Source: an uncultured Eubacteriales bacterium (GTDB lineage Bacteria > Bacillota > Clostridia > Oscillospirales > CAG-272). Taken from it: 64,000 nt of DNA. The notes beneath the pieces are model-generated. The model searched no databases and had not been told where the DNA came from. It was given only the letters and a program-made list of their open reading frames with translations. The position numbers and the translations under genes were made by a program. Positions 3,001-63,062 of this stretch are shown piece after piece (the first letter of the stretch is position 1; every line of letters begins with the position of its first letter). The stretch covers positions 103,500-167,499 of the forward strand of contig CAOKER010000003.1 of NCBI GenBank assembly GCA_948467545.1, read 5' to 3'.

Positions 3001-3245
3001 CCACTCCGTTTGCGGTTCTGGACGAAATTGAGGCTGCGCTCGACGATGTGAACGTTGCGAGGTTTGCGGATTATATTAAGAGGTATTCTGAGAGTACTCA
3101 GTTTGTTGTAATTACACACAGGCGCGGCACAATGGAGATTGCGGATACTCTTTACGGTGTGACAATGCCTGAGCGCGGAATTTCACGTGTTCTGACGCTT
3201 AGTATTGTTGATGCGGAAAACAAACTTGGGGTAAGAATAAACTGA
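1..3245 (+). CDS. smc: Chromosome segregation protein SMC (5' end cut by window edge)
   Basis: Frame open from window start; long coiled-coil-like E/K/L-rich arms and a hinge region; C-terminal ABC signature LSGGEQSF and Walker B VLDEIEAALD; followed by ftsY as in many Firmicutes. Confidence 0.95.
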   Translation, partial: KPARLKDITELFMNTGVGRSGYSIIGQGKISEIVSQKSEDRRTIFEEAAGISKYRFRKNEAERKMNTVTENMTRAGDILRELESRVAPLEKASEKARRYLQLYEEKKRLDVSLCLFDVDAIRRKVNELSDSAAVAKRVLDEADGELSALEAKNERLYNESQANKIKAEEAQKKLRENSEKVIKLEGSIRVINTEIEHQKQKRNEAELNRSVHVTAYEEAVKNSAGLKEQLAELQARLAELRAEYERRLADTEKLKQKRSGLEEFMSDKDSFIREIRERLVSDKLKLSEISGFSDSSVGRREELNATLEELRVRNELLQKRYDKAEDTIADYSKRLETVMEKCTRLKAENENKAAEIERLRDNQSRLVSDYTSKKQRADTLRRMEEHFEGYSNSVRFVMDNSERGKLSGIFGPVSRMIDVSPKYSIAVETALGSNVQNIIVENESAAKDAISLLKKSGAGRATFYPVSSVRAQPLNIDLNQLEKYRGYIGIASELIQCDGRCKNVIEYMLGRTVVFDDLSNATECARSMGYRVRIVTLDGQLINAGGSFTGGSTKRDSGMLTRAQEIARFESEAERIGIELTANREAIAGLQKELDGTVGELEENEQNINVLNTMLGAEKSQQLVIQSQLDGDKELYSKTLETLDEIRIRDERDAEEKLRLEEQIERLTADLSETEKQRAELEKQHIECNKAISDSIECSNSQLIKITQAEKEIESKENNIELSENSENSLLGSAERDLENINSADEACKIYADRLSETSNRMEELKAEAEKLECEHDALVSEGIAGDAALSKLRNQVKEESHRRENLFRAYTELDSKLEQTKSEQDKLSSKLWDEYELTYATASELDYPPVTDETRARTSSASADLKNKIRALGSVSLDSIDEYKEVSERAEFMRRQYDDLCVSKADLEKIINGLEADMKKRFLDVMSELDANFKATFRELFGGGTAELRLTDPDEPLTCGIEINVAPPGKIVKSMSLLSGGEQSFVAIALFFAILNVNPTPFAVLDEIEAALDDVNVARFADYIKRYSESTQFVVITHRRGTMEIADTLYGVTMPERGISRVLTLSIVDAENKLGVRIN

Positions 3246-3358
3246 GCATAAAGCTGTTTGTTTTTTTGTATTTCTGACAACGCGTATAATTTGGCGTTAG
3301 AAACGGAGAAATTATTACTCCAAACATATTTTTATGCGGAAAGGCACAGGTATTGATA

Positions 3359-4267
3359 ATGTCTTTTTTCGACAGACTTAAGCAGGGATTGACTAAGACA
3401 AAAGAGGGAATTTTTAAACAGGTTGATAATCTGTTTAAATCTTTTGTCCGTGTAGATGAAGAGATGCTTGAGGAGCTTGAAGAACTTTTGATAATGGCAG
3501 ATGTCGGAGTAGAGCCGACAGAAAAAATTATAAATTCGTTGAGAGATAAAATCAAGGACGAACGAATTTCCGACTCCGAGCAGGCAAAGACCGCGCTGTG
3601 TGAAATGCTGAAATCAGAAATCGGCGAAGGAGAGCCGCTGCGTATCGGAACATCTCCGTCGATCATACTTGTTATCGGTGTAAACGGGGTTGGTAAAACA
3701 ACGTCGATTGCAAAAATTGCCGCGAATTTAAAGCGGAGCGGCAAAAATGTACTTCTTGCAGCGGCGGATACATTCCGGGCCGCTGCGATTGATCAGCTGC
3801 AGATATGGGCTGACAGAGTCGGAGTAGACCTCATTAAACATACGGAAGGTTCCGATCCGGCGGCGGTAGTGTTTGACGCCGCGGCGGCGGCAAAAAAGAG
3901 AAACGCGGATGTTCTCATTATAGATACGGCAGGACGGCTTCACAATAAGAAGAATTTGATGAACGAGCTTGCGAAAATAGACCGCGTTATAGAGAGGGAG
4001 CTTCCCGGAACAGATCGCGAAACGCTTCTTGTCATAGACGCGACTACCGGACAGAATGCGATAAGTCAAGCAAAGGAATTTAAAAATGCCGCGAATATTA
4101 CAGGCTTAATTTTAACCAAGCTGGACGGCACGGCAAAGGGCGGAATTGTATTTTCGATTAAAGAAGAACTTGATATACCGGTTAAATATATCTGCGTCGG
4201 CGAACAGATTGAAGATCTTGAGGAATTTGACGCCGATGATTTTGTAAGGGCGCTTTTTGACCGATAA
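3359..4267 (+). CDS. ftsY: Signal recognition particle receptor FtsY
   Basis: ATG 3359 gives MSFFDRLKQGL; SRP-GTPase motifs GVNGVGKTT, DTAGRLH, TKLDGTAKGG. Confidence 0.95.
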   Translation: MSFFDRLKQGLTKTKEGIFKQVDNLFKSFVRVDEEMLEELEELLIMADVGVEPTEKIINSLRDKIKDERISDSEQAKTALCEMLKSEIGEGEPLRIGTSPSIILVIGVNGVGKTTSIAKIAANLKRSGKNVLLAAADTFRAAAIDQLQIWADRVGVDLIKHTEGSDPAAVVFDAAAAAKKRNADVLIIDTAGRLHNKKNLMNELAKIDRVIERELPGTDRETLLVIDATTGQNAISQAKEFKNAANITGLILTKLDGTAKGGIVFSIKEELDIPVKYICVGEQIEDLEEFDADDFVRALFDR

Positions 4268-4301
4268 GCAGGTAAAGGCCGTTTGAAGAAAGGTATTTGT
4301 T

Positions 4302-6348: not shown

Positions 6349-7947
6349 ATGGGGGACAAAATGGATAACAAAAACACAAACAGCGTGAATCGTAATAAGA
6401 ATGAAAATTATACAGGAAGGACAGTTTCTCGGAAAAAAGAAAATTCATCTCACGGAGCCGGGCAGAACCGCAGACAGAATCACAGCGGGAGCGGCGGTTA
6501 TACTTTAGAAAATCATAAACAAGATCACAGCTGCAGTCAGAACCGCAGTAATAATCAGGATCGCAGTGAGAGCGGAAGTCAGGGCGATAAAAAAGACCGC
6601 GGAAATAGGCAGGTCGGAAGTCATGGATCGAGTATACACCGCGAAAGCGGTTTGTATTCTGCTTCAGGTACGAGACATCCGAGGTCAAATGCACACAGAC
6701 GTGAATCAAAATCGTCTGAATCCGGCGTTAGGCATTCAGCTGAAAAGAGAACGGAAAGGTCGGGAAAAACTTCGCATAAGTCCAAAAAATATACGATACT
6801 GCTAAGTATACTTGCTTTTGTTATAGTTTTGGGAATTGTAGTTGCAGCTTTATGGCATATAGTCGATTCATATGAGCCGAGTGTGGATATCGGACCTGCC
6901 GGGGAGACTGCCGAAGGCACTGTCAATGCCGCTGCGGAAAGCGATTATATAGGGGAGCCTCCGGCAGCGGTCAGTACAAGCATAGAACGTAAAAGCGGTT
7001 TTTATACGATGCTTGTCGTCGGGCATGATCAGGTCGCTGTAAATACCGATGTAATTATGCTGGTTTCCTTTGACGTGGCAAACGGATCACTGTCGGTAAT
7101 GCAGATTCCGCGCGATACGTATATCGAATATAAGGGGACGTCTCACAAAATAAACAGCGTTTACGGTATTATGCGCGACAATTCACTTTCGGACAAAGCT
7201 GCGCGGATTGCTTCGGGAATGGACGGACTTGCCGAGCTTCTTGAAGACGGACTTGGAATTCCGGTCGATTTTTGGGCAATTGTGGATCTCGATGGATTCA
7301 GCGGAATTGTGGACGCCATAGGCGGAGTTGAAATGGAGCTTACCTATGATATGGATTATGAGGATCCGGATCAGGATCTGTATATCCATTTGAAAAAGGG
7401 CGTTCAGACGCTGAACGGAGATCAGGCGGAGCAATTCGTCCGATTCAGATACGGCTATGCTCAGGGAGACATCGGACGTGTTGATGCCCAAAAGGTTTTC
7501 ATGAGCGCGTTGTTCAGACAGCTGAAAAGCAATCTTTCGATTTCGAATGTTGCCAAAATAGCCGAACAGACAATTGCTATGGTAAATACGGATATGAAGC
7601 TTCTTGACTGCGTATATTTCGGCAAGAACTTTATCAAGGGTGTGGATCCGGCAAATATAACGTTTGTTACTTTACCCGGGGAAAGTACCCGTGAGTACGG
7701 CACAAGCGGTCTTTCCTACTATGTTATGCGCCGTTCCGATATGCTTGCGCTTGTAAACAAATATTTCAATCCGTATACAATCGATCTTACGGAACAGTAT
7801 ATTGATCCCAAGCTCATTTTTAACAGTGAGGATAACAGATATATCAGTTCCATATATCTTGCCGATCCGAACGAAGCTCTTGAAAAGAATGTTTACAGTG
7901 CGGATGATATAAACGGCGGAGCTATGGATATACCTCTTGTAAATTAA
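6349..7947 (+). CDS. LytR-CpsA-Psr (LCP) family cell-envelope phosphotransferase with about 150-aa basic low-complexity N-terminal tail
   Basis: Single TM segment (ILLSILAFVIVLGIVVAALW) followed by LCP blocks MLVSFD, MQIPRDTYI, KINSVY, FVRFRYGYAQGDIGRVDAQ. Confidence 0.85.
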   Translation: MGDKMDNKNTNSVNRNKNENYTGRTVSRKKENSSHGAGQNRRQNHSGSGGYTLENHKQDHSCSQNRSNNQDRSESGSQGDKKDRGNRQVGSHGSSIHRESGLYSASGTRHPRSNAHRRESKSSESGVRHSAEKRTERSGKTSHKSKKYTILLSILAFVIVLGIVVAALWHIVDSYEPSVDIGPAGETAEGTVNAAAESDYIGEPPAAVSTSIERKSGFYTMLVVGHDQVAVNTDVIMLVSFDVANGSLSVMQIPRDTYIEYKGTSHKINSVYGIMRDNSLSDKAARIASGMDGLAELLEDGLGIPVDFWAIVDLDGFSGIVDAIGGVEMELTYDMDYEDPDQDLYIHLKKGVQTLNGDQAEQFVRFRYGYAQGDIGRVDAQKVFMSALFRQLKSNLSISNVAKIAEQTIAMVNTDMKLLDCVYFGKNFIKGVDPANITFVTLPGESTREYGTSGLSYYVMRRSDMLALVNKYFNPYTIDLTEQYIDPKLIFNSEDNRYISSIYLADPNEALEKNVYSADDINGGAMDIPLVN

Positions 7948-8003
7948 ATTGCGATTATGAATGCGGACGATGAAAATTGTCGTTCGTTTTCATATTTAAT
8001 AAC

Positions 8004-8032
8004 TTGACCTTAAAATAAAATTGTGTTAAAAT
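8004..8032 (+). promoter_or_regulatory. Sigma-70-type promoter upstream of rsfS-leuS
   Basis: TTGACC (8004-8009), 17-nt spacer, TAAAAT (8027-8032) with an upstream TGn extended -10. Confidence 0.5.
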
Positions 8033-8074
8033 ATATGAAAATACGGTGATTTTTTCCGAAGGGAGACCGCCATA

Positions 8075-8602
8075 ATGACAATAGAAAAGAATTTTTTCGG
8101 CGGCAAAGATAATGCCGAAAACAAGATAGAGGGTTTTAATATTCCGGACAGCGAAAAAATGGAGAAAGATAATGATTCGGACAACCGGTTTGAGACGCTT
8201 TTTTCCGGAACCGATAAAGACAGAAAAGCGAAAATTCCCGACGGCTTTCAGGAACCGCTTGAGCTTGCAAAGCTTGCGGTACGGGTTCTTGATTCAAAAA
8301 AGGCGAGGGGAATCAAGCTCCTGCGCGTCAGCGAAAAAACCATAATCGCAGATTATTTTATACTTTGTACCGGAACGTCGAATACGCAGCTTCGTGCTCT
8401 GTCGGGAGAGCTGGAGGAAGAGCTTAGAAAATCGGGCATAGAGCCCGGTCATATTGAAGGTTATAACGAGGCGAGCTGGATTATTATGGATTACGCTTCC
8501 GTCATCGTTCATATCTTTAATCGGGAGACGCGTAATTTTTATAATCTGGAAAAGCTTTGGAGCGAAGCCGAGGAGATTGATATTTCCGGAATTATCGACT
8601 GA
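8075..8602 (+). CDS. rsfS: Ribosomal silencing factor RsfS with about 60-aa N-terminal extension
   Basis: C-terminal two-thirds carries RsfS blocks ADYFILCTGTSNTQLRAL and WIIMDYASVIVHIFNRETRNFYNLEKLW. Confidence 0.9.
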   Translation: MTIEKNFFGGKDNAENKIEGFNIPDSEKMEKDNDSDNRFETLFSGTDKDRKAKIPDGFQEPLELAKLAVRVLDSKKARGIKLLRVSEKTIIADYFILCTGTSNTQLRALSGELEEELRKSGIEPGHIEGYNEASWIIMDYASVIVHIFNRETRNFYNLEKLWSEAEEIDISGIID

Positions 8603-12117: not shown

Positions 12118-12192
12118 TGGTGACCCGTAGGGGAATCGAACCCCTGTTACTGCCGTGAAAGGGCGGTGTCTTAGCCTCTTGACCAACGGGCC
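12118..12192 (-). tRNA. tRNA-Glu (anticodon UUC), CCA encoded
   Basis: Reverse complement reads GGCCCGTTGGTCAAGAGGCTAAGACACCGCCCTTTCACGGCAGTAACAGGGGTTCGATTCCCCTACGGGTCACCA. It has a 7-bp acceptor stem, a CTTTCAC anticodon loop and a GTTCGATTC T-loop. Confidence 0.9.
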
Positions 12193-12234
12193 GTATATCA
12201 TTGCAGATATCTGCAATGAACAGATAAAAATCCA

Positions 12235-12311
12235 TGGTAGCGGAAGTCGGACTTGAACCAACGACCTGCCGGGTATGAACCGGACGCTCTAGCCAGCTGA
12301 GCTATTCCGCC
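12235..12311 (-). tRNA. tRNA with CAU anticodon (elongator Met, or Ile2 if lysidinylated), CCA encoded
   Basis: Reverse complement reads GGCGGAATAGCTCAGCTGGCTAGAGCGTCCGGTTCATACCCGGCAGGTCGTTGGTTCAAGTCCGACTTCCGCTACCA. The 1-72 pair is G-C, so it is not an initiator. Confidence 0.85.
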
Positions 12312-21662: not shown

Positions 21663-23198
21663 ATGAACGAAAATACAGCAAATTCATCGGAAAGAAAAAA
21701 TTCAGCAGCTCAGGGTAATGTACAGGAACAGGATATAGGTCAGCTTCTGAAAGTACGGCGAGAAAAGCTTGCGGCTTTGCAGCAGGATGGAAAGGATCCT
21801 TTTAAGATTACAAAGTATGATGTTACAAACCACAGCGCAGAAATAAAGTCCGATTTTGAAGCTTTTGATTCTAAAGCAGTTTCCGTTGCCGGAAGAATGA
21901 TGTCAAAGCGTGTTATGGGCAAAGCTTCTTTTTGTAATGTTCAGGACAGTCAGGGTACAATTCAGGCATATGTCGCACGTGATAATGTTGGAGAGGAGCC
22001 GTACGGAGATTTTAAAAAATATGATATCGGCGATATAATTGGAATTAAAGGAACGGTATTTAAAACTAAGACGGGAGAGATTTCAATTCATGTAACCGAA
22101 ATCACACTTCTCTCAAAAAGTCTTCAGATACTTCCGGAAAAATTTCACGGTCTTACGAATACGGACCTCCGTTACCGTCAGCGCTATACCGACCTTATTA
22201 TGAATTCGGATGTAAGGGACACATTTGTTAAGCGTTCAAGAATAATCGGGGCTATCAGAAAATACCTAACATCTCAGAATTTTCTTGAGGTAGAAACTCC
22301 TATGCTTGTAAACAATGCAGGAGGTGCATCGGCAAGACCGTTTGAAACACATTTTAATGCGCTTGACGAGGACATGAAGCTTCGTATTTCTCTTGAGCTT
22401 TATCTTAAGAGACTTATTGTAGGCGGTTTGGAACGTGTATATGAAATAGGACGTGTTTTTCGCAATGAAGGGTTGGATACCCGTCATAATCCGGAATTTA
22501 CGCTTATGGAGCTTTATCAGGCTTATACCGATTATCACGGAATGATGGATTTGACTGAAAATATGTACCGTTATGTTGCCAATGAAGTTCTTGGAACGAC
22601 CAAAATTACCTATAACGGAATTGAAATGGATCTCGGAAAGCCATTTGAACGTATTACAATGCTGGACGCTGTAAAAAAATATTCGGGAGTTGACTTTAAT
22701 GAAGTACATACTCTTGATGAGGCAAGAGAGCTTGCAAAAAAACATCACATTGAATTTGAAATGCGCCATACAAAGGGCGATATTTTAAATTTATTTTTTG
22801 AAGAGTTTGTTGAAGAGCATCTTGTTCAGCCTACCTTTGTAATGGATCATCCTGTTGAAATTTCACCTCTTACTAAGAAAAAACCGGATAACCCGGATTA
22901 CGTCGAAAGATTTGAATTTTTCATGAACGGATGGGAAATGGCGAATGCGTACTCTGAGCTCAATGATCCTATCGATCAGCGCGAACGTTTTGCTGCTCAG
23001 GAAAAACGTTTTGAGCAGGGAGATGCGGAGGCTAATCATACCGATGAAGATTTTCTTAATGCTCTTGAAATCGGTATGCCTCCTACAGGTGGAATCGGTT
23101 TTGGAATTGACAGAATGTGTATGCTTTTTACAGATTCCGCTGCTATACGGGACGTTTTGCTTTTCCCGACGATGAAGTCCCTGCCGAGTGAAAAATAA
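21663..23198 (+). CDS. lysS: Lysyl-tRNA synthetase (class II)
   Basis: OB-fold N-domain; motif 2 [25 protein letters not shown]; motif 3 [17 protein letters not shown] 21663 (MNENTANS) preferred over the upstream ORF start. Confidence 0.95.
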
Positions 23199-23264
23199 GA
23201 AAAAACAGGGTTTTGACAGCTTTTGCCGGGTTTCGTTAATCCAAATTTACCCCGGAAAAAGGGG

Positions 23265-23463
23265 TTTACGACAAATTTACGACAAATGACTTCGAGGGCA
23301 GAGGTGGATTTTTACGACAAATCGCTGTCGTAAACACCGTGAATCGAAAATCGTTAATCGAGTGGCTTCATTGTAGTGGCTACATTGTAAAAACGGCAAA
23401 AAGGCCTTGTAGAATGGGCGGTTACAGCCGTTTACGACAGAAAGATCAGAGATATTTACGAAA
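23265..23463. repeat. Iteron cluster TTTACGACA(AAT): two tandem copies, an inverted pair, and two further copies
   Basis: TTTACGACAAAT at 23265, 23276 and 23311; inverted TGTCGTAAA at 23326-23334; TTTACGACAG at 23431; partial TTTACGAAA at 23455. Confidence 0.8.
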
Positions 23464-23575
23464 ACGAAAACAGAGCTTCAATCTTACGGTTGAGGCTCTA
23501 TTTTTTTGCTTGAAAGTCGTATCCTTTTTTGATTTCCGTTTTCCTGTATAATGAAAGCGTCAGGAGGTGCAGCAG

Positions 23576-23755
23576 ATGAAGCAGAAAGATTTTCATATAT
23601 ATTTGACGGGGCAGGAACGCAATCAGGTGATTCAATATCTGATTGAACTTAAAAACAGTCTGATAGTGCAGGGCAAATATACAGACGCAGTAGACGATGT
23701 ACTGATTAAAATTACGAAGGCTCGGAAGAAGCACATTGCTGTCCGTTACATTTGA
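23576..23755 (+). CDS. Small conserved-looking ICE protein (59 aa), function unknown
   Basis: AGGAGG 8 nt upstream of ATG 23576; extended -10 TGTATAAT at 23545-23552; followed by a strong terminator. Confidence 0.55.
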   Translation: MKQKDFHIYLTGQERNQVIQYLIELKNSLIVQGKYTDAVDDVLIKITKARKKHIAVRYI

Positions 23756-23767
23756 ACAAAGATAGTG

Positions 23768-23810
23768 AAGCCGCTTGTTTCTCTTACTTGGAGAAGCAGG
23801 CGGCTTTTTT
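23768..23810 (+). terminator. Intrinsic terminator
   Basis: 16-bp stem AAGCCGCTTGTTTCTC/GAGAAGCAGGCGGCTT (two G-U pairs) followed by TTTTTT. Confidence 0.8.
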
Positions 23811-23855
23811 GCGTTTAGGAAGCGCACAAAATTTTTTTGAAAAATTTTTCAAAGC

Positions 23856-23912
23856 AGAGTCCCCAAACGACCTTTCCCTGTGAGAACAAGTGAAAGGGTA
23901 AAATCCACTCCG
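23856..23912 (+). promoter_or_regulatory. Copy A of a conserved bipartite element (42-bp block + CCACTCCG box) upstream of the parA remnant
   Basis: 40/42 identical to 61693-61734. After a 7-8 nt variable gap a second shared box, tcCACTCCG versus tcTACTCCG. Contains CCTTTC...GAAAGG hairpin potential. Confidence 0.6.
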
Positions 23913-23987
23913 ATTCGGAGTGCTTCCCTTCGCTGAATCTTGACAATTAAATAGACAGGCGTTAAGGACTTTATTTCTGATGATTAG

Positions 23988-24598
23988 CCCGAAGGTGGGT
24001 ACGCCACGACCGTCACTTCTTAGGGTTCCCGAAAAGTCGATAGACTTTTTGGGAAAAATTGTCTGCAATGGAAATGAGCCTTGTAACTGCTATGAGCAGG
24101 GAATCCGTAATGAAAAATTACCTGAGCCAAGTAAAAGACAAATACGATTATATTCTGATCGACTGTATGCCTTCGCTCGGTATGATTACCCTGAACGCAT
24201 TAACGGCGGCGGACAGCGTGATTATTCCCGTTCAGGCACAGTATTTGCCTGCAAAGGGAATGACGCAGCTTTTGCAGACCATCTCAAAGGTAAAGAAGCA
24301 CACCAATCCGAACTTGCAGATAGACGGGATACTTTTAACCCTTGTGGACGGGAGAACAAATCTTGCGAAAAGCACGGTGGACGCTTTGCGGGATAACTTC
24401 GGCAGCCGCATTAAAATATATAAGACTGCCATTCCCATTGCCGTAAAAGCGGCAGAGGTATCCTCTAAGGGCAAAAGCATTTACGCTTATGAGCCAAGCA
24501 GTACGGTATCTAAGGCTTACGCCGATTTCACAAAGGAGGTGTTAGCCGATGGCAGGCAGAAAGAGCGACTTCACGCTTCCAACGAACACGCTCGATGA
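23988..24598 (+). pseudogene. ParA/Soj-family ATPase, N-terminally decayed (Walker A lost)
   Basis: 24059-24598 encodes the C-terminal two-thirds of ParA (DYILIDCMPSLGMITLNALTAADSVIIPVQ...). Upstream, an 11-codon remnant PEGGYATTVTS sits in another frame, lacks the P-loop Lys and is bounded by stops. Confidence 0.7.
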
Positions 24599-25487
24599 CC
24601 TTTTTTCCACGCAGGAGGAACGGGACGAGGCGAAGCTGCAAAAAATCAGAGACATACCGCTTTCTGAAATCGACGGTTTTCCCAACCACCCGTTTCAGGT
24701 GCGGGAAGATGAGGATATGTTTCAGCTTGTGGAAAGCATCAAGGAGCGTGGCGTTATTACGCCCGCAACCGTAAGGCAGAAAGAAGATGGCAGATACGAG
24801 CTTATTTCAGGACACAGGCGTAAAAAAGCTTGCGAGCTTGCCGGATTTGAAACGCTGCGCTGCGAGGTTGTAGACCTTGACCGGGACGAAGCGACGATTT
24901 TAATGGTGGAGAGCAACTACCAAAGGTCGCAGATACTTCCGTCAGAAAAGGCGTTCGCCTATAAAATGCGGCTGGATGCAATGAAAAGACAGGGACAGCG
25001 TAATGATTTAACTTCTGCCCCAGTGGGGCAAAAGTTTTCAAGAGAGGTTTTAGCGGCAGAAAGCGGCGATAGCCATTCGCAAATCCAGCGTTATGTCCGT
25101 CTTACAAACCTTGTTCCCGAACTGCTTGAATTTGTCGATGAGGGCAAAATTAAAATGCGCCCTGCCGTAGAGCTTTCCTATCTTGACGAGGACTGCCAGC
25201 GTGATGTGGTGGACGAAATTGACTTAAACGACTGTACGCCCTCCCACGACCAAACAATCCGTATGCGGAAGTTCTTTAACGAGGGCAAACTGACTACCGA
25301 GGCGATTTCTGCGATTATGAGCGAGGAAAAGCCAAACCAGCGTGAAAAGATTGTTTTGCGTGGGGATAAGGTGCGAAGTCTGATACCGAAGAACATTCCG
25401 ATAAATCAGACGGAGGAATATGTCTGCAAGGCATTGGAGTATTACAACAAATTTCTGCGAAGCCGGGCGGAACGGTACAGCAGGTAG
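24549..25487 (+). CDS. ParB/Srx-domain partition/nuclease-like protein
   Basis: AGGAGG 9 nt upstream; ParB N-domain blocks IPLSEIDGFPNHPFQV, ERGVITPATV, LISGHRRKKACELAG. Confidence 0.85.
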   Translation: MAGRKSDFTLPTNTLDDLFSTQEERDEAKLQKIRDIPLSEIDGFPNHPFQVREDEDMFQLVESIKERGVITPATVRQKEDGRYELISGHRRKKACELAGFETLRCEVVDLDRDEATILMVESNYQRSQILPSEKAFAYKMRLDAMKRQGQRNDLTSAPVGQKFSREVLAAESGDSHSQIQRYVRLTNLVPELLEFVDEGKIKMRPAVELSYLDEDCQRDVVDEIDLNDCTPSHDQTIRMRKFFNEGKLTTEAISAIMSEEKPNQREKIVLRGDKVRSLIPKNIPINQTEEYVCKALEYYNKFLRSRAERYSR

Positions 25488-25704
25488 GCGGAGTGTGTTT
25501 TTTTCATTTCCCCTTCCTCACACTCTAACCCCTTGAAACTACCTGACTAACCGAAAAAGAATATTCTATCTCCCTGAATTTACGCTGTCTTACCTGAGTA
25601 AATCTATCTCAGGCAAATGAAAAAGGAATGCGATGATTTGCACTCTTGCCGAAAAAGGCTTTATTGGCTAAAATGAGGTCAAAAGGACGAAGGAGTGTGA
25701 CGCT

Positions 25705-32028: not shown

Positions 32029-32040
32029 GAGGTGTCTGTC

Positions 32041-35000
32041 TTGGCACGAAAATATGACTTGATTTCCGAACTGTACCGCCGAACCTGTCAGACAGTCGTG
32101 GGAAACCCGCAGAATTGGGAAGCCTTCCTGCGCTGTGCCTGTCATAATTACAGGCTTCGCTTTGACGAGCAGCTTCTGCTTTACGCACAGCGACCGGACG
32201 CAACGGCAGTTTTGGAAATTGAACGCTGGAATACTATCTTTGGGCGTTGGGTAAATCGTGGCGCAAGAGGGATAGCAGTATTCGAGGACGCAGACAGAAG
32301 CGTACAGCGACTGACGCACTATTTTGATATTTCCGATACTCACGAGAGCCGCTATTCCCGTCCTGTTCCGATATGGCAGATGAAGCCTGAATATACCGAA
32401 GCTGTCATTGATACCCTTGAAAACACCTTCGGAACGCTGAACGATAAAACCAGCCTTGCAGACGCAGTTATGAGCGCAGCGCAGAACGCCGTAGAGGATA
32501 ACATTCCGGATTATGTAAGCGACCTTATTTATTGTGCCGGAGACAGCTTTCTTTACGGACTCGACGAGGATATGATTGCCGCTATGTATAAGTCCTTAGT
32601 AACAAACAGCGTGGCGTATATGATGAGCGCAAGGCTTGGTATGGATACGGACTTATACTTTGAGGCGGCTGATTTTTCCAATGCCACGAATTTTAATACG
32701 CAGGAAACCCTCAACGCACTCGGCTTTGCTACCAGCGATATTGCTGAAATGGGACTTTCTGAGATTTCCCGTACCATTCTTGCGCTGGACAGGCAAAATC
32801 GCATAATTGCCGAAAAGGGAAAGACCGATTACAATAAGAGCGAAGCTGAAACGGAAAGGAGCGCTGAGAATGAACGAAATCAAATACACAATGCAGGGCG
32901 ATTACAGCCTGCCGAATCTGGAAATGCCCAAACAGCCGGAGGTAACGATGGGCAGATACGCTCAGATGAGACGGAAGTTCCTGAAAGAACATCACCGAAT
33001 CCGGTACTACAATCTGCTGACAAGCTGCACTCTGACGAGCCACTTGGCGGAAATCGAGCAGACGGCATTGACGATGGAAGAAACTCTGATGAAGCAGATG
33101 GCGCAGAAGGAGGGCTTGACCGAGAGCCTGAAAGCGACCGATATGATGAAGTGGGTGCAGGGAATGAACAATCTGAGGAACAGAGTGCAGGAGATCGTGA
33201 AGGCGGAGGTAATCTTCGTTTAGGCTACTATGACAGAAGTCACGAGGACAAAAGCCTTCCGTCTTTCGGCAAGGACGAGGATATTAACGAAATGCTTTCC
33301 ATCACGCCGCACCTGAAAGCGACGAAGGAAGAAATCCGAGCCTTTTATGAAAATACTTCTGACAATGCTGCCCGAACAGAATATATCAAGAGCATTTTCA
33401 ATGATGACTACACCGAGCTTATTTTAAGCGACGGAAGGCGTGTCGGCTACAAGACCTATGAGAATGTGCTTCATTTGTGGGAGGGCAGCTATTTAAGCCG
33501 CACGGCGCAGAGCTATTATGATTGGGGCGTGATTGCACGGCATTTTGAAGCGCTGCGGCTGCTTGGGCAGTTGCGGGACACAATGAAACCTTTACCGTCG
33601 GTTGACGGACAAATGACATTTTTGGATATGCAGGCAGAGGAAAAAACCTCTGCCTTTACTTTTTCTCAGGAAATTATCGACGCTGTTCTCACTCGTGGAA
33701 GCGGCGTATCAGAGGGAAAGTTCCGTATCTATGAGCAGTTTGAAAAGAGCCTTTCCGCAAAGGAAAATATTGATTTTCTGAAAAATGAATACGGTTGGGG
33801 CGGCGTTTATCCTGTTATTACCGGAACGGGCATTAACGAGCAGCACGACGGAAAAGGGATTCTCTTATCAAGAGGGATTGGCGATGATAAGCCGCACATC
33901 CTGTTGAAATGGAATCAGGTGGAAAAGCGGCTTGCCGAGCTTATCCGTCTTGACCGTTATCTGAATCCGAAGGAAAAGGAACTCTATCCCGAATGGCAGC
34001 GAAAGCAGGAGGAACGCCGGGCAGAGCTTGCGGAGGAGCAGAAAAACAAAGAAATTCTGTCCTCTGCACCGCCCGAAAGGAAGCAGGAAGAACGCACAGA
34101 GCAAAACGCTGAGTATGAATATCATCTTGGCGATACTGTCTATATGGGCGCTGATGAATATGAAATCTTTTCCTTTGATGATGAACGGGTAAAGCTTCGT
34201 GATATGCAGTATCCGCTATTCACAAAAGAAATGGAGAGAGCCGAATTTGACCGCAAGGTGCGGGAAAACCCGATGAACGACCACCTGAAGGTTAAGGAAT
34301 TACCGTCCGAAAGAGGAATTGCTTTCGATCCGAACACTACGCCTATCGGTGATGATGACTACTATTTCCACCGTCCGGGTATGGGAGGCTTTGAAGCAAT
34401 CTATTATAACCCTGATTCCAATGCCGGAGGACAGTTTGTTGTTCTTCATTTGCCGTATGAACTGATAGCAGAAGCGCAAGCGAACAGCAACACCATAGAC
34501 GGATTTTATGAGTATCTCGACAGCGCAGCATATACGGAACTCATTGATGTTGGAACACAGGAATTTTCCGACTATCTTGAAGCCTATGCCGAACCGAATC
34601 CCGATTATATCGGACGGACGAGAGAAACAATGCAGGCTCTTGTAGAGCAGGCGGAAAAAGCGCTTAACAATGGCAATAAAGATATACCGTATTCGGAAAC
34701 GAAGCTTGATGAAGCAAAGCGGATTATAGATGAGTATTGCCGTGAAGAATTCGAGCGTGAGGAAGGAGCAGACTATACAGACCTTTCCAATGTAGAGGTA
34801 GCATATACCACGACAGAGGACGAAAAGCACGAAATTCAGGCGAGAGTCAACCTTGTGGACTTCCGAATCGAAGCCCTCGTTGACGGTAAGGCAATCAGGA
34901 GCGAACAGTTTTCCACTCTTGAAGATATGGTGGAAAGAGGCTTGCAGAGCCTTTCCTTTGACGAGCTTGTTTATCTCTCGGACGAAGAACTCGCAAAAGT

Positions 35001-38000
35001 GGAGAATATTTCTGCCGAGCAGCCTGCGCCTGAACCTGAAAAACCTTTAACGCCTGCTTTCACACAGGAGAAACGCTCACGGGTACAGACCTTTGATTTG
35101 CACCCTGAAATACCGATGTCTGAACGGCATACCTTTGACCTTGCTTCCCACGAAGTACCCGAAGCAGGCAAAAAAGAACGCTTCCGCAGAAACATTATGG
35201 CAATACAGCTTTTGAAAAAATGTCAGGAGGAAAATCGCTTTGCCACACCCGAAGAACAGGAAATCCTATCGCAGTATGTGGGTTGGGGCGGTATTCCCGA
35301 AGCCTTTGACGAGAACAATTCGTCGTGGGCAACGGAATATCTTGAGCTTAAATCAGTCCTGACGCCGGATGAATATATATCCGCAAGGGAAAGCACCCTG
35401 ACCGCCTTTTACACGCCGCCGACTGTCATATCTGCTATTTATAAGGCAATGGGACAGATGGGATTTCGTGAGGGCAATATCTTGGAGCCTTCCTGCGGTA
35501 TCGGAAACTTTATCGGTATGCTGCCCGAAACAATGCAAAACGCTAAGATGTATGGCGTGGAGATTGATACTGTTTCGGCGGGTATTGCACAGTAGCTTTA
35601 TCAGAAAACCTCGATTGCGGCACAGCCCTTTGAGGAAGCAAGTATTCCCGACAGCTTCTTTGACGCAGTAATCGGAAATGTACCGTTTGGGGATATTCGT
35701 ATCAATGACAGGAAGTACAACAAGCATAATTTTCTGATTCACGACTACTTTTTCGCAAAGTCCCTTGATAAGCTAAGACCGGGCGGCGTGATGGCGCTCA
35801 TTACGAGCAAAGGCACGATGGACAAGGAAAATCCCGCAGTCCGAAAGTATATCGCTCAGAGAGCCGATTTACTCGGAGCAATTCGCTTGCCTAATAACAC
35901 CTTTAAGGGCAACGCCGGAACGGAGGTCGTATCGGATATTCTTATCCTGCAAAAGCGGGACAGGCTCATAGATATTGAGCCTAAGTGGGTACATCTGAAT
36001 GTCGATGAAAACGGCGTTAAGATGAACGCCTACTTTGCAGATCACCCTGAAATGGTGCTTGGCGAATGGAAAACCGTATCCGGCAGATTTGGCGAGGAAA
36101 ATACGGTCGTACCCTATGAGAACGCTGACCTTGCCGCACAGCTTGAGGAAGCGATTTCAAACATTCACGCCGAGATAACGGTGTATGAAACCGAGGAAGA
36201 GCTGGAGGAGGAAGATAACTCTATCCCCGCCGATCCCGATGTACGGAACTTCTCCTATACGGTAGTGGACGATAAGATTTACTATCGTGAAAACTCACGA
36301 ATGACGCCTGTGGACTGTTCCGCAACGGCTGAAAACCGTATAAAAGGTATGATTGCCATTCGTGACTGCGTAAGAAATCTGATTGAAATTCAGACTTTGG
36401 ATTATCCTGATTGGGAGATTGAAAAGGAGCAGCAGAAGCTAAACATCTTGTATGATACTTTTTCAAAAAAGTACGGACTTATAAACAGCCGGGCGAATGT
36501 ATCCGCTTTTTCGCAGGACAGTTCTTTTTCCCTGCTTTCCGCTTTGGAAGTGTTGGGCGATGACGGAGAGCTTGAACGCAAGGCGGATATGTTTTTCAAG
36601 AGGACGATCAAGCCGCATATGCCTGTTACTTCGGTGGACACCGCCAGCGAAGCGTTAGCCGTATCTATGGGTGAAAAGGCTCGTGTGGATATGGACTATA
36701 TGCGTGAGCTTACGGGCAAGTCCGAAGAAGAGATTTATCAGGACTTGAAGGGCGTTATCTTCCTGAATCCGATGTACGGTTATGGCAACAGCACCGAAGC
36801 AAAATATCTGATGGCGGACGAATATCTCTCCGGCAATGTGCGGCAAAAGCTCTCTTGGGCGAAAAAGTCCGCAGAAGTCTATCCCGAAGATTACAAGGTC
36901 AATGTGGAGGCGCTTGAAAAGGTACAGCCGAAAGACCTGAATGCGAGCGAAATTTTCGTGCAGCTTGGCACGACTTGGCTGCCCGAAGAAATCATACAGC
37001 AGTTTATGTTTGAGTTTCTTGATACGCCGGGATGGGCAAGGTGGAATATCAAAGTCCATTATTCAAAATATACGAGCGAGTGGAATGTGGAGGGAAAAAC
37101 CTACGACCGTTCCAATGTTAAGGCGCACAACACCTATGGTACGCAGCGTATCAACGCCTACAAAATCATAGAAGAAACGCTGAATATGAAAGATGTCCGA
37201 ATCTACGATTATATCGAAGATGACGAGGGCAAAAAGAAAGCGGTACTCAACAAAAAGGAAACAGCTATCGCACAGGCGAAGCAGGAGCTTATCAAGCAGG
37301 GCTTTAAGGACTGGATTTGGAAAGAGCCTGAACGCCGGGAGAAGCTGGTGCGGATATACAATGAGAAGTTCAATTCCATTCGTCCCCGTGAGTATGACGG
37401 AAGCCATATTGTATTTAACGGAATGAATCCGGAAATTGAACTGAGAGAACACCAGAGAAATGCGGTTGCACATATCCTGTACGGCGGCAATACGCTTTTG
37501 GCGCACGCAGTCGGTGCAGGCAAAACCTATGAAATGACCGCCGCCGCAATGGAGTCAAAACGGCTCGGACTGTGCAGCAAATCGCTGTTCGTCGTGCCGA
37601 ATCATCTGACAGAGCAATGGGCGGCGGAGTTTTTACAACTTTACCCTGCGGCAAATATTTTGGTCGCTACAAAGAAGGATTTTGAGATGAAAAACCGCAG
37701 ACGGTTCTGCGGTCGGATTGCAACGGGCGATTATGACGCAATCATTATCGGGCATTCGCAGTTTGAAAAAATCCCGATGAGCTTTGAACGGCAGAGGGCA
37801 ACCTTACAGCAGCAGATTGATGAAATTACCGAAGGAATAGCCGACTTGAAGCGCAATCGTGGCGATAAATTTTCCGTCAAGCAGCTTGAAAAGACAAAGC
37901 GTTCTTTGAAGATTAAGCTGGAGAAGCTGAACGACCAAAGCAGAAAAGATAATCTCGTTACCTTTGAGGAGCTTGGCGTAGACAGGCTTTTCATTGATGA

Positions 38001-39099
38001 AAGTCATTACTACAAAAACCTTTATCTCTATACGAAGATGAGGAATGTAGGCGGCATTGCTCAGACGGAGGCGCAGAAATCTTCCGACCTCTTTATGAAA
38101 TGCCGATACCTTGATGAGCTTACAGGCGGTCGAGGAACGGTCTTTGCGACCGGAACGCCAATCTCAAACAGTATGGTAGAACTCTATACCATTCAGAGAT
38201 ATTTGCAGTACAACACGCTGCGGGAACACGATTTGCAGCACTTTGACGCTTGGGCTTCCAGCTACGGCGAAACTATAACCGCAGTTGAATTAACGCCCGA
38301 AAGTAGCGGATACCGAGCGAAAACACGCTTTGCAAGGTTTAACAATCTCCCTGAACTGATGGCGATGTTCAAGGAGGTTGCGGATATAAAAACGGCGGAT
38401 ATGCTGAACCTTCCCGTACCGGAGGTGGAGTATCACAACATCGCTGTAAAGCCATCGCAGATTCAAAAGGATATGGTCGCTTCTCTTGCTGAAAGAGCAG
38501 AGGCGATACGGGCAGGCGGCGTAAACGCAAGCATAGACAATATGCTGAAAATTACCAACGACGGGCGCAAGCTGGCGCTCGATCAGCGTATGATGAACGA
38601 AATGCTGCCGGACGATGAGGGCAGCAAGGTCAATGCCTGTATTCGTGAGGTCTATCGGATTTGGGAAGAAAACACCGATAAGCGGTCAACGCAGCTTTTG
38701 TTCTGCGACCTTTCCACGCCGAAGGGCGAAGGCACTTTTTCCGTTTACAACGACATTCGGAAGAAGCTTATCCAGCGTGGCGTTCCTGAGTCGGAGATAA
38801 AATTTATTCACGAGGCGGATACCGAAGCCAAGAAGCAGGAGCTTTTCAAAAAGGTACGGCGTGGCGAGGTGCGAATCCTCATCGGTTCTACGCAGAAAAT
38901 GGGAGCCGGCACGAATGTGCAGAATAAAATCATTGTTTCCCACGACATAGATTGCCCGTGGCGACCTTCTGATGTAGGACAGATTTTGCGGACATTCAAA
39001 ATAAAAAAATGTGGAGGTAACAGACAATGGCAAAATCATTATTTGAGGAAATGGGCGGCAGATACGAAAGGCAGGGAGATTATCTTATTCCGTGTCTGA
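32041..39099 (+). pseudogene. Giant polyvalent protein gene: ArdC-N-like domain, linker, LPD-type domains, N6-adenine DNA methyltransferase, SNF2/DEAD-type helicase. Interrupted by an in-frame TAG and 3'-truncated
   Basis: Single frame from TTG 32041 (RBS AGGAGG) to 39099, with one TAG at 35593-35595. MTase motif I LEPSCGIGNFIG and motif IV GNVPFG lie on opposite sides of the stop. Helicase motifs AVGAGKTY, DESHYYKN and TGTPISNS are present, but the sequence after DCPWRPSD (motif VI) is unrelated. Confidence 0.8.
32870..33223 (+). CDS. TnpV-family protein gene nested out of frame inside the polyvalent ORF
   Basis: AAAGGAG 8 nt upstream of ATG 32870. The 117-aa product aligns end to end with the second TnpV-like gene at 39027 (QGDY, LKE..R..Y.NLLTS, LAEI, MNN.R, EIV..E.I). 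Confidence 0.7.
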   Translation: MNEIKYTMQGDYSLPNLEMPKQPEVTMGRYAQMRRKFLKEHHRIRYYNLLTSCTLTSHLAEIEQTALTMEETLMKQMAQKEGLTESLKATDMMKWVQGMNNLRNRVQEIVKAEVIFV

Positions 39100-43152: not shown

Positions 43153-43583
43153 ACAGAACGGGAAGAACAAGCCCGCCGAATAAAAAAACGAAGTTCGGCG
43201 GGCTGCGTTCCCATGCTCTTATTTTCCCTCTGGGCTTCGTTTTGAAGTTTGGAGGGATTTTTATGTGCGGGCGTAAACCTGCCACATTCTGCCGCCTGCT
43301 TATGTGGGTGATTACATACATAGTATCATGGATTAGCGAGGATAGTCTGTTAAAAAAATCCTCACTTGTGCATGGTGCTACTATACCCCAAAAGTAGATA
43401 CCAAATTTCTGCAAGACAGATATTTAATACCCTATAACCGTGAAGGTGTGACAGCCTTTACGGTTTTTCTTTTGTCGCTTTTTGTCAGCAGGCAGGACAA
43501 GCCTGCTTCTGGCGTGGGCTGCCGTTCCCCACCCTCTTATCTGGATTTTTACATTTCAAAAATTCAGATTGGAGGTACTTACG

Positions 43584-44099
43584 GTGAAGTATGCACCAAG
43601 AAAAGTATATATCAAAGAAAACAATGTCTATGTGGAATTGTCCTATGAGGACTTCTGCCGCCGCAGGCAAACAGACCAGAGTTACATGGACAAGCTGTTT
43701 ATCCCCGTGCAGGGCTGCCTGCTTGAAGTCGTGCGGGAACAGTACGCCGATTTCTATCGGGAGAAAGAACGGTGGCGTTACCTGAAAAAACTGGACGCAA
43801 GCCACAGCCTGCTCTCATTGGAGGGCTTTACGGACAGCGAGGGAAATGTGATTGACTTCGTTGTAGATGAAACGGCGGACGTTGCGGAAACCGTTATCCG
43901 TGCGGCGATGGTGGACAGGCTGAAAGCTGCCCTATCCTTATTGTCGGATAGTGAACAGGCATTGATACAGGCAATCTTCTTTGAGGAACTTTCCGAGCGG
44001 GAAGTCGGGCTGCGGTTAGGCATCACGCAGAGCGTTGTGAACAAGCGCAAAGCCAAAATCCTTGCGAAGCTGAGAAAGATAATCGAAAACAAAATTTAA
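43584..44099 (+). CDS. Sigma-70-family (region 4) ICE regulatory protein
   Basis: GTG 43584 lies 8 nt after GGAGG; C-terminal LSDSEQALIQAIFFEELSEREVGLRLGITQSVVNKRKAKILAKLR HTH. Confidence 0.75.
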   Translation: MKYAPRKVYIKENNVYVELSYEDFCRRRQTDQSYMDKLFIPVQGCLLEVVREQYADFYREKERWRYLKKLDASHSLLSLEGFTDSEGNVIDFVVDETADVAETVIRAAMVDRLKAALSLLSDSEQALIQAIFFEELSEREVGLRLGITQSVVNKRKAKILAKLRKIIENKI

Positions 44100-44197: not shown

Positions 44198-44623
44198 ATG
44201 GCATATAACCACCGACGGGAAGAACGCAAGTGGCGTATCTGGAAAGAGAACGAAGAAAAGATATTGCGTGAGTGCGGCGTTGATGAAAGCACGATTGAAG
44301 AAATTCGCACTTATGACAGAGCAGATTTTAATTCCAACAGGCGGTTTTACCGTTGAACAAATGATGTAGCGGAGTACCTTGAAGAAATGGCGGATAGAGA
44401 GCCGCAGGCAGAGATACATTCTGTCGATGAATTGTTAGATGAAATCGAGAACGAAAGGCTGTATCAGGCATTGGTTACAGTGGACAAGCGTACTCTGCAT
44501 ATTCTACTGCTGAAAATGCATGGATATTCCACAAAGGAGATTGCCCCGATTGTCGGGCTGACAACGGGAGCTATTTATGCAAGGGTGGAACACTTGCGGA
44601 AAAAGCTGAAGAAAGTTTTATAG
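44198..44623 (+). pseudogene. Sigma-70 region-4-type ICE protein split by an in-frame TGA
   Basis: MAYNHRREERKW...RRFYR stops at TGA 44354-44356, then the same frame continues TNDVAEYLEEMADRE...LLLKMHGYSTKEIAPIVGLTTGAIYARVEHLRKKL (HTH) to 44623. Confidence 0.65.
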
Positions 44624-44654: not shown

Positions 44655-44690
44655 AATGAGTGAGGGGAGAAATCCTCTCACTCATTTTTT
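44655..44690 (+). terminator. Intrinsic terminator
   Basis: 10-bp stem AATGAGTGAG/CTCACTCATT followed by TTTTTT. Confidence 0.75.
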
Positions 44691-44704
44691 CGGGAGGAAG
44701 GACA

Positions 44705-45178
44705 ATGGCATATCGAAAAAAGGCGTACACGCTGAAAGAAGAAATCAGGGAGGACGGCATACGATACTCTATCGGTTTTAAAGACGGACAAGGGAATTAT
44801 CACGAATTAGAAGTGTCCGAGCAGTTTTTTATGGAGTTCCGCCAGATGGAGCGAAGAAACAGAAATCTTCAGCAATGGGATGAACGTCATCGGGAGTTTA
44901 ATGAGGTCTGGGAAGAAACGCTGAACAGACGGGCATTGAGATTACCGAAAACTCTGGACGAGCTGCTGATGGATAAAGAGCGTGACGAGCTGCTCTACCG
45001 TCTGATTGACGGGCTACCAGAAATTCAAAGGCGGCGTTTTCTGCTCTACTATGATTACGGCTTCAACTACTACCAGATTGGGGCAATGGAACATTGCAAT
45101 GCTTCGGCGGCAAGGAACTCTGTTGTAATTGCAAGAGAAAAAATCAAGGCGCAGATGGAAAAATATCTTTGTGCCTGA
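44705..45178 (+). CDS. Sigma-70 region-4-like HTH protein
   Basis: ATG 44705 after GGGAGGAAGG; LPEIQRRRFLLYYDYGFNYYQIGAMEHCNASAARNSVVIAREKIK. Confidence 0.65.
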   Translation: MAYRKKAYTLKEEIREDGIRYSIGFKDGQGNYHELEVSEQFFMEFRQMERRNRNLQQWDERHREFNEVWEETLNRRALRLPKTLDELLMDKERDELLYRLIDGLPEIQRRRFLLYYDYGFNYYQIGAMEHCNASAARNSVVIAREKIKAQMEKYLCA

Positions 45179-61694: not shown

Positions 61695-61750
61695 AGTCCC
61701 CAAACGCCCTTTCCCTGTGGGAACAAGTGAAAGGACTTGTTTCTACTCCG
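61693..61750 (+). promoter_or_regulatory. Copy B of the conserved bipartite element, starting at the sigma gene stop codon and 46 nt upstream of the MazF-like gene
   Basis: 40/42 identical to 23856-23897, plus the shared CTACTCCG box. Alternative hairpins CCTTTC/GAAAGG and GAACAAGT/ACTTGTT. Confidence 0.6.
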
Positions 61751-61795
61751 GATATGGAACGCCTTTCAAATACTTATATTGAGAGGTTTATATAA

Positions 61796-62352: not shown

Positions 62353-62574
62353 ATGGCAGATACAAATACAACTACAAAGCCGTATGTACCCGTTTGGGAA
62401 AAATACGCTCTTACAATTTATGAAGCGGCAGAGTATTTCGGGATTGGGGAACATCGTCTGCGGACATTGGTAAGAGAGAACCGTCAGGCTGATTTTGTGC
62501 TGTGGATTGGAGTGAAGGTGGAAATCAAACGGAAGCTGTTTGAGGAATTTCTGAATGAAATAAATGCACTCTGA
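62353..62574 (+). CDS. xis: Tn916 Xis-like excisionase (HTH) paralog 1
   Basis: PVWEKYALTIYEAAEYFGIGEHRLRTLV...EIKRKLFEEFL parallels Tn916 Xis [28 protein letters not shown]. Confidence 0.8.
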   Translation: MADTNTTTKPYVPVWEKYALTIYEAAEYFGIGEHRLRTLVRENRQADFVLWIGVKVEIKRKLFEEFLNEINAL

Positions 62575-63049: not shown

Positions 63050-63062
63050 AAGGAGGGCGGCA

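Follow-up and report, generated by a model that had tools for sequence, protein, structure and literature searches.

Two nearly identical 42-nt sequences lie 38 kb apart in a 64,000-nt stretch of DNA from an uncultured Eubacteriales bacterium (hereafter, the window), raising the question of what a sequence placed at the head of two separate ICE operons does, and of whether it is read as DNA or as RNA. The repeat, first described in a sequence-only reading of the window, is real. Two + strand copies of AGAGTCCCCAAACGnCCTTTCCCTGTGnGAACAAGTGAAAGG, namely copy A (23856-23897) and copy B (61693-61734), are identical at 40 of 42 positions, and no third copy was detected in the window at up to 3 mismatches. 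No match to AGAGTCCCCAAACGnCCTTTCCCTGTGnGAACAAGTGAAAGG appeared in 100 dinucleotide shuffles of the window, such that none is expected by chance, and a profile prepared from ~100 distinct relatives recovered just copies A and B in the window. Copy A comprises a 5' box (GTCCCCAAACG), a pyrimidine tract (CCTTTCCC) and a 3' box (AACAAGTGAAAGG). The short second box that had been included in the initial description, extending the element to 23856-23912 and 61693-61750, is likewise present, appearing as tcCACTCCG after 7 nt in copy A and as tcTACTCCG after 8 nt in copy B.

Pfam scans assigned the region up to position 23198 to the chromosome (genes encoding an S41 peptidase, GreA and LysRS) and the region beyond this point to a Tn916-type ICE. 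The left part of the ICE contains a 59-aa ORF, a ParA remnant, ParB and a SpaA adhesin, followed in the middle by a split methylase/helicase, TnpV, two sigma-like genes, Phd/ParE, PrgI and VirB4 and, further right, by a sortase, a CHAP protein and metal cargo. On the right side are found a sigma-like gene (61161-61694), a MazF-like gene, three Tn916-type Xis paralogues and, from 63341, the integrase.

Copy A is preceded by the 59-aa ORF (23576-23755, + strand), which is without a Pfam or NCBIfam match and which precedes copy A in all copy-A-type loci; in more than 20 loci it lies upstream of the unit with 76-85% identity. Between the two lie a strong intrinsic terminator detected in a terminator scan (23767-23810, + strand; an 18-pair stem then T6), also kept in all copy-A-type loci, and an AT-rich palindrome read from the sequence, TTTGAAAAATTTTTCAAA (23836-23853), directly upstream of copy A. 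Most units are preceded by a comparable palindrome of a T-run and an A-run, that of copy B falling within the final codons of the sigma-like gene. Copy B starts, as initially described, within the stop codon TAG (61692-61694) of this 177-aa sigma-4-like gene (61161-61694, + strand), such that the stop codon overlaps the first bases of the copy, and the end of copy B, second box included, lies 46 nt 5' of the MazF-like ATG at 61796. The MazF/PemK-like gene (61796-62347, + strand; 183 aa; Pfam PemK_toxin) is the first gene of an operon comprising mazF, three xis genes and int. Its product consists of a toxin domain (residues 10-115) and a C-terminal extension, and the gene always follows a sigma-4-like gene. 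No recognisable antitoxin gene adjoins it. The stretch at 62354-63326, between the MazF-like gene and the integrase, holds the three consecutive Tn916-Xis/HTH_17 paralogues, which have a repeated 43-nt stretch in common, as seen in locus L001.

The claim that each copy stands just upstream of the first gene of a module proved correct in that both copies stand at the head of ICE operons, although not for copy A in regard to the first gene, since in intact relatives a leader of ~400 nt intervenes before parA. In the window, the distance from copy A to the parA remnant is ~145 nt rather than the ~75 nt first given, with the ParA-homologous frame beginning at 24057/24059.

Conservation of the motif across related loci was then considered using an nhmmer profile, which revealed ~280 copies, corresponding to more than 120 distinct units, in ~100 related loci of gut Clostridia. 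A degenerate-pattern scan identified 68 metagenome loci, to which scans of IMG/VR added more; pattern matches numbered 82, and an exact-pattern scan of genome contigs returned three loci, one of them a chance match. Every unit is co-oriented with the downstream genes. The unit consensus is AAAAcAGgGTGCATTTGgCCtTtCCCAGTGGGAATAAGTGAAGGGA, in which the 3' box, T-N3-AAY-RRGTGA-RRGG, is invariant. Here, T29, A33-A34 and AAGTGA are essentially invariant and are followed always by two purines and then by GG. The 5' half is variable, with 5'-box classes including GGGTGCRTTTG, GTCCCCAAANG and GGGTTGGAATT, and with GGGAAY alternating with CCAAAT. In agreement with the initial failure to recognise a named motif, neither copy matched any Rfam 15 family, whether at the gathering threshold or at E values of up to 10, nor did an array of units. 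BLAST of units and arrays against annotated plasmids and phages yielded just an unannotated phage match and matches to pemK leaders, and literature searches addressing the motif sequence, Tn916 orf7 promoters and pemK returned nothing bearing on the motif. Copies A and B belong to this large and widespread family, so far unnamed, whose members are strand-specific leader elements of ~45 nt carried by ICEs and IMEs of gut Clostridia.

Members of the family occur in three contexts. In type A, represented by copy A, the 59-aa ORF, a terminator, an AT-rich palindrome, the unit, a leader of ~400 nt and parA-parB follow one another. In type B, represented by copy B, the unit adjoins or covers the stop codon that ends a sigma-4-like gene, and mazF-xis-int comes next, an order (sigma-like gene, unit, mazF, xis, int) that is kept down to 45% sigma identity. 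In type C, found in other elements, tandem arrays of 3-10 diverged units, 58-115 nt apart, come after a terminator and precede an operon encoding HTH_17, Cys-rich VLP, AAA_25, NikA, MobC and ParB_N proteins. Such arrays occupy a non-coding stretch of ~0.7 kb at 7681-8340 of locus L043 and in ~40 other loci (e.g., L026, L048, L063 and L090), and the order of unit types within them is conserved between loci. The possibility that copy A is only the tail of a duplicated sigma gene, raised on the basis of its upstream flank, is refuted, as the copy is found at the same position in more than 20 loci from several lineages.

Several simple identities for the unit were considered and rejected. A small ORF beginning at the GUG of the 3' box would not be kept, as the reading frame is not conserved between lineages, while CsrA-type GGA sites are discounted by GGA not being universal among units. 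A general hairpin between the 3' box and the T-run is stable in copy-B-type units only. The Cys-rich VLP protein, considered as a factor common to all contexts, is absent from the ICE in the window; of the window proteins tested, ParB (50% identity) is the only one also found in array loci.

Is the unit, then, a promoter? The sequence-only reading had taken GAAC, a gap of 17/18 nt and C(C/T)ACTCCG for the -35/-10 layout of an alternative-sigma promoter. Neither box is conserved as such in homologous units. GAAC is replaced by CCAAAT, TCAAAC, GATAC and other sequences, and CYACTCCG forms one arm of a hairpin in copy A and the loop of another in copy B, and array units lack it. Moreover, a start site downstream of this second box would leave the conserved helices described below out of the RNA. 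No conserved -10 follows the 3' box. None of the consensus sequences of sigma-54, sigma-H, sigma-B/F/G, sigma-D, ECF and T7-like promoters was matched consistently in a comparison by hand. Likewise, the TTGACA found 3' of copy A is not a -35 box, as UUGACAA is the strand of an RNA helix that pairs with the parA start-codon region. A scan for sigma-70 promoters did find TTGAAA-16-TAGAAT directly before copy B, yet the count of such matches is within shuffle expectation and the sequence is lost in close relatives. Copy-A-type units and arrays come after strong terminators, and no convincing sigma-70 promoter was found between terminator and unit, a point that counts against the RNA reading proposed below. 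Read-through or a weak promoter in the AT-rich palindrome could account for transcription of copy A.

As to the sigma-like proteins, four of which had been reported for the ICE, three are clear (43482-44099, 44660-45178 and 61161-61694), whereas the fourth (44357-44620) is a weak match. In PDB, Pfam and NCBIfam comparisons, the sigma-like protein showed similarity to region 4 and YlxM-like proteins only (profile positions ~86-178), with no region 2 being found, and its match to TIGR02937 falls just below the cut-off. No sigma homologue was found within array-bearing loci.

A broader version of this idea deserves to be weighed as a serious rival, namely that the unit is a DNA-level promoter or operator read by the ICE sigma-4-like helix-turn-helix protein or by a host factor, co-activating the partition/conjugation and excision operons, with arrays offering multiple sites. 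Such a role would suit the position of units, which head operons and follow both terminators and AT-rich tracts similar to UP elements, as well as the bipartite build with 17-18 nt between the 5' and 3' boxes (in the units of one array and in one type-B unit) and the existence of several 5'-box classes. It would also suit the arrays of 3-10 units, in which an invariant 3' box is not accompanied by an RNA fold, the three or four sigma-like genes of the ICE, one of which copy B abuts, and the sigma-70-like sequence before copy B. Still, GAAC and the previously proposed -10 are not conserved, no hexamer pair fits sigma-70 or the sigma-54, sigma-H or ECF consensus, and no conserved -10 comes after the 3' box. 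With the 3' box contributing a strand to conserved RNA helices, any start must be upstream of the box. In addition, TTGAAA-16-TAGAAT is lost in close relatives, array-bearing loci offer no sigma homologue and the protein resembles region 4 only, and unit spacing in the arrays is irregular, at 58-115 nt. Taken with these points, a DNA site is a possibility that we regard as doubtful.

In three loci, the 3' box (GAGTGAAAGGAG, 8 nt, ATG) doubles as the ribosome site for the gene that follows, and in these loci it must therefore be part of the RNA. The region between copy B and mazF was addressed at the RNA level using an alignment of 15 distinct sigma-mazF spacers (A3), on which the copy-B helices are based. 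Hairpin P2 (61719-61744, + strand) is formed by pairing of GGGAACAAGU (61719-61728) with ACUUGUUUCU (61735-61744) around the loop GAAAGG and is followed by UACUCC. Across the 15 distinct sequences, 93% of the P2 cells are paired, with compensatory changes at two pairs (CG/UA/UG and AU/GU/GC). Hairpin P3 (61739-61760, + strand) is formed by GUUUC (61739-61743) and GGAAC (61756-61760) around the conserved loop UACUCCGGAUAU, which is the second box of copy B; again, 93% of cells are paired, and compensatory change is seen in three of the five pairs. P2 and P3 have a strand in common and are mutually exclusive, and column 58 of the alignment covaries both with column 37, its partner in P2, and with column 73, its partner in P3. 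As such, both of the exclusive hairpins appear to be selected. Both hairpins that had been pointed out at first sight were also examined. The copy-B hairpin GAACAAGT/ACTTGTT is backed by compensatory changes, and CCTTTC/GAAAGG, said to form in both copies, can fold, yet showed nothing in a permutation test that purine/pyrimidine composition does not explain.

Further pairing involves the 3' box. In helix H of copy B (61727-61768, + strand), the 3' box GUGAAAGG (61727-61734) pairs with CCUUUCA (61762-61768), with P3 nested within. Counting H together with nested P3, 92% of cells are paired across the 15 sequences, as compared with 36-67% in controls in which the partner was slid. In P4 (61762-61786, + strand), CCUUUCAA (61762-61769) pairs with UUGAGAGG (61779-61786), the ribosome-binding site of the MazF-like gene; here, 86% of cells are paired, no two-sided compensatory changes are seen, and the helix is present in the predicted minimum-energy fold of the window sequence. 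H and P4 compete for the CCUUUCA strand, and the 3' box GUGAAAGG resembles the mazF ribosome-binding site UUGAGAGG. The predicted set thus includes mutually exclusive helices, one of which, P4, covers the mazF ribosome site, as would be expected of a switch that masks a ribosome site or couples translation. Relative to shuffled sequences, the copy B region gave z = -3.1 for the + strand and z = -1.97 for the - strand, and the helices contain many G-U pairs that would be A-C mismatches on the opposite strand. With regard to a possible intrinsic terminator or attenuator, helix H is followed by U4-5 in loci L025, L029 and L112, and is not so followed in the window or in L094, L104 and L111.

Copy A heads a comparable fold. 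Its helix H (23889-23934, + strand) pairs AGUGAAAGGG (23889-23898) with CCCUUCGCU (23926-23934) and surrounds an apical hairpin, CACUCCG-AUU-CGGAGUG (23906-23922). The second box of copy A is the 5' arm of this covarying hairpin, CACTCCG/CGGAGTG. In 16 of 16 distinct copy-A-type variants, the partner of the 3' box is a pyrimidine arm (CYCCCUUCRCU) further downstream, and the apical inserts inside type-A helix H are unrelated between lineages. In alignment A5, 86% of the cells of type-A helix H are paired, versus 42-53% with the partner slid. Folding of the copy A region relative to shuffled sequences gave z = -2.9 for the + strand and z = -0.85 for the - strand. Almost no two-sided compensatory changes are seen in helix H, since the 3' box is invariant.

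Together, these findings suggest that the copies most likely act in RNA, as a switch helix ahead of the partition and excision operons. The invariant 3' box (AAYAAGUGARRGG) serves as the 5' strand of helix H, the 3' strand being the pyrimidine run found 25-35 nt downstream, and helix H encloses a small covarying hairpin. In the mechanism that we propose for copy B, a state combining P2 and P4 would close the mazF ribosome site, and a state combining P3 and H would leave it open, with the 3' box mimicking a ribosome site. From these closed and open states it would follow that the module controls how the mazF-xis-int operon is translated, and perhaps how stable it is. The probable trigger would be a ribosome finishing the sigma-like ORF, some factor that reads the invariant box, or both. 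Indeed, the stop codon of the sigma-like gene lies at or inside the unit in every type-B variant, either as TAG just before the unit or as TAA/TGA inside the 3' box; the variable position of this stop codon weakens a simple ribosome-footprint model. In the copy A context, the same module forms the first helix of a structured leader of ~450 nt that contains a pemK RNA. We assign a probability of roughly 0.45 to the explanation as a whole, that is, to a leader-family RNA switch module in which a mimic of the ribosome-binding site gates mazF-xis-int and of which copy A is a stranded remnant. An RNA leader module with alternative helices is the best-supported mechanism, with a DNA promoter or operator, on the one hand, and an RNA site for a trans-acting factor, on the other, as serious rivals.

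The leader downstream of copy-A-type units was defined in relatives in which it is intact. Across nine lineages, the type-A parA leader measures ~450 nt and contains 98 consensus pairs, 34 of which show compensatory change; examples from alignment A5 include L025 2574-3030, L112 6045-6510 and L094 6680-7137, among others. Within it, ~200 nt downstream of the unit, lies a pemK RNA recognised by Rfam (70-73 bits), the leader being far larger than the 61-nt Rfam pemK motif that it contains. RNAalifold, applied to the nine lineages, further revealed a long-range helix in which UUGACAAUUAAAU (23940-23952 in the window, + strand) provides the 5' strand and the parA start-codon region (UGUCAA) of intact relatives the other, with 94% of cells paired. 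Most of this leader is missing from the window. Positions 23043-24057 align to L031 3444-4459 and positions 24057-25532 to L031 5097-6587, defining a deletion of 637 bp, with its junction at 24057, that removed most of the parA leader, the pemK RNA included, along with the 5' half of parA. The missing stretch, L031 4460-5096, is a clean deletion. In line with this, a covariance-model scan detected no pemK RNA in the window, and the ParA remnant covers just profile positions 90-177. The partition operon looks decapitated and the ICE degraded. Because the deletion cut off the leader and the 5' half of parA, copy A is here a stranded remnant, keeping helix H and no longer heading a functional gene.

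The leader and the unit are separable modules, given that an Enterococcus faecium plasmid (NZ_CP027518.1; locus L113, 2360-2560) has a pemK leader with no unit upstream. There, TTGACAATTAAATA, GTACGCCATGACC and the pemK leader come in turn before a small helix-turn-helix gene and an integrase. Like the unit, the pemK RNA (RF02913) is a candidate cis-regulatory RNA of Firmicutes mobile elements and is found in the same parA leader, and the two have short words in common (e.g., GAGAAC and GUGAAA). Unlike the unit, the pemK RNA presents a different consensus and a three-hairpin structure, and the unit yielded no pemK match at E values of up to 10. The unit, moreover, occurs without pemK, as at copy B and in arrays, just as pemK occurs without the unit on the E. 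faecium plasmid.

The arrays show that pairing does not account for everything. Duplex z-scores for the 3' box and downstream sequence were -2.4 for the combined class of type A and last array units, -1.5 for type B and -0.3 for internal array units. The internal units keep the invariant box with neither helix H nor a stable fold, implying that the box is constrained by something beside these helices, probably a trans-acting factor on DNA or RNA. In one such scenario, the box would be an RNA recognition or processing site that, when single-stranded, is bound or cut by a factor such as the adjacent MazF/PemK-like endoribonuclease or the 30S subunit, the latter in the manner of a STAB-SD stabiliser, with H and P2 modulating access. 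The invariance of the box even where it is unpaired would be expected of such a site, as would the constant presence of a unit ahead of the MazF-like gene, which has no recognisable antitoxin gene. In terms of the 30S subunit, RRGG tolerates A or G where a U partner allows A-U or G-U, fitting a CUUUCC-type anti-Shine-Dalgarno such as that at the 3' end of 16S rRNA, and three loci use the 3' box as an actual ribosome site. Yet, no MazF-like gene is found in array-bearing loci or adjoining copy-A-type units, and the AAYAAGUGA part of the box is not explained by pairing with 16S rRNA. As such, a processing or binding site of this type seems unlikely.

More speculatively, the invariant box might be the address label of a trans-acting regulator common to many unrelated ICEs and IMEs, co-ordinating excision, partition and transfer, an idea that we hold only tentatively. 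Were this so, the regulator might be a MazF-like or sigma-4-like protein or a small RNA that reads single units and arrays of up to 10 and flips the RNA switches, providing gut-microbiome mobile DNA with a common regulatory code.

Comparison with known systems places the RNA switch in context. Alternative pairing that masks a ribosome-binding site is known from the ermC leader and from the MS2 coat-replicase junction. As in these instances of coupling, a chain of pairing segments would be formed at copy B by the pyrimidine tract, the ribosome-site mimic, the anti-Shine-Dalgarno run and the true ribosome site, with the upstream ORF ending at the first segment. Unlike in ermC and MS2, there is no dedicated leader peptide, and the module is also present at copy A, where no ORF ends nearby, and in arrays. 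STAB-SD, the 5' stabiliser of the Bacillus thuringiensis cryIIIA mRNA (GAAAGGAGG), similarly has a purine box of Shine-Dalgarno type (GARRGG) that lies far 5' of the start codon within a long Firmicutes leader. By contrast, the unit contains a further invariant AAYAAGU, is often base-paired and occurs in arrays; a stabilising role here is putative. The right side of the ICE recalls the orf7/orf8-xis-int region of Tn916 in presenting a sigma-like orf7 homologue, a small gene, a Tn916-type Xis and an Int with an arm-binding domain. It differs in having a MazF-like gene in place of orf8 and a conserved, predicted RNA switch between the sigma-like gene and mazF. Control of Tn916 is ascribed to the promoter Porf7 and to read-through across the joint, whereas terminators are found at the left end of the ICE considered here. 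Finally, repeated RNA-like units upstream of a gene for an endoribonuclease of MazF-like fold, with no adjoining protein antitoxin gene, bring to mind type III toxin-antitoxin systems (ToxI/ToxN). The unit is nonetheless not a type III antitoxin array, as a single unit precedes mazF and the toxin belongs to the PemK family and not to ToxN, and as the diverged units that lie 58-115 nt apart are found in other elements, where there is no MazF-like gene.

ICEs of Lachnospiraceae, Oscillospiraceae and related gut Clostridia mobilise resistance and fitness genes, and, to our knowledge, almost nothing is known of how the decision for excision and transfer is taken in these elements. A short and highly conserved module found before both the excision/toxin and the partition/conjugation operons, tied to covarying RNA switches and recurring in arrays of other elements, offers a concrete handle on that decision, and one open to testing. 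At the same time, the poorly understood pemK RNA is extended into a much larger structured leader.

The close resemblance of copies A and B to each other calls for separate comment. Within an ICE lineage, the two copies carry the same variant bases, namely AAACG...CTGTG...GAAAGG here and AAAAG...CAGTG...GAAGGG in another lineage, which differs also in the middle of copy A. Judged from sequence comparison, the 40/42 identity points to recent gene conversion or recombination between the direct repeats A and B. It might be asked whether the copies are mere by-products of recombination, with no function of their own, in the form of brief stretches of homology at junctions where modules were shuffled or gene conversion took place. 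The lineage-specific bases common to A and B (AAACG...CTGTG here versus AAAAG...CAGTG elsewhere) would be so explained, as would locus L064, which joins the upstream flank of copy A to the downstream flank of copy B. Against this stand the invariance of the 3' box in more than 120 distinct units with unrelated flanks from several element types, the downstream arms that stay complementary to the 3' box, and the nature of L064 itself, a 4-kb contig of 3.4-fold coverage that could be an assembly chimera. We consider a functionless by-product of this kind highly improbable.

Two loci present joined modules. L064, a contig of 4168 nt, contains the 59-aa ORF, a terminator, one hybrid unit (motif at 3206-3251), mazF, xis and int. 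It is either a recombinant lacking the intervening 38 kb, that is, the ICE interior, or, considering its 3.4-fold coverage, an assembly chimera. In L082, on the minus strand, a motif at 7778-7821 precedes a mazF-like gene (7712-7185), and directly after the mazF-xis-int module come the small ORF of the left end (4255-4079) and a type-A unit (3942-3989), the two units belonging to different 5'-box classes. This arrangement fits a circular or tandem ICE junction.

Just inside the left end of the ICE, at 23265-23439, five exact repeats of TTTACGACA were found, four direct and one inverted, and the same sequence recurs near the right end in locus L001, at about 4250-4290. The pattern of these repeats suggests that they are probably integrase arm-type sites. 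The unit itself was rejected as an integrase arm-type or Xis binding site, with TTTACGACA filling that role at the left end, and as an ICE terminus or att site, as the upstream 59-aa ORF belongs to the ICE and the arm repeats differ. The 59-aa ORF and its terminator accompany copy A in every related locus, which places copy A inside the ICE and not at its terminus. Copy B, for its part, precedes xis and int and is separated from the ICE right end by more than 2.3 kb, counted to the end of the window.

Elsewhere in the ICE, an ORF of 1187 aa (32032-35595) has no Pfam match and ends in the methyltransferase-like motifs GWGG and EPSCGIGNF, with a ResIII/SNF2 ORF (35788-39099) coming after it. On the basis of these motifs, the two are probably parts of one large gene for an anti-restriction methylase/helicase that a frameshift or stop has interrupted. 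The 1187-aa ORF had also been considered as an element-encoded RNA polymerase, a candidate that was dropped, given its resemblance to the N-terminal part of the methylase/helicase instead. Lastly, the chromosomal part of the window contains two tRNA genes (12121-12311, - strand) that have no connection with the site near the 3' end of lysS at which the ICE is inserted.
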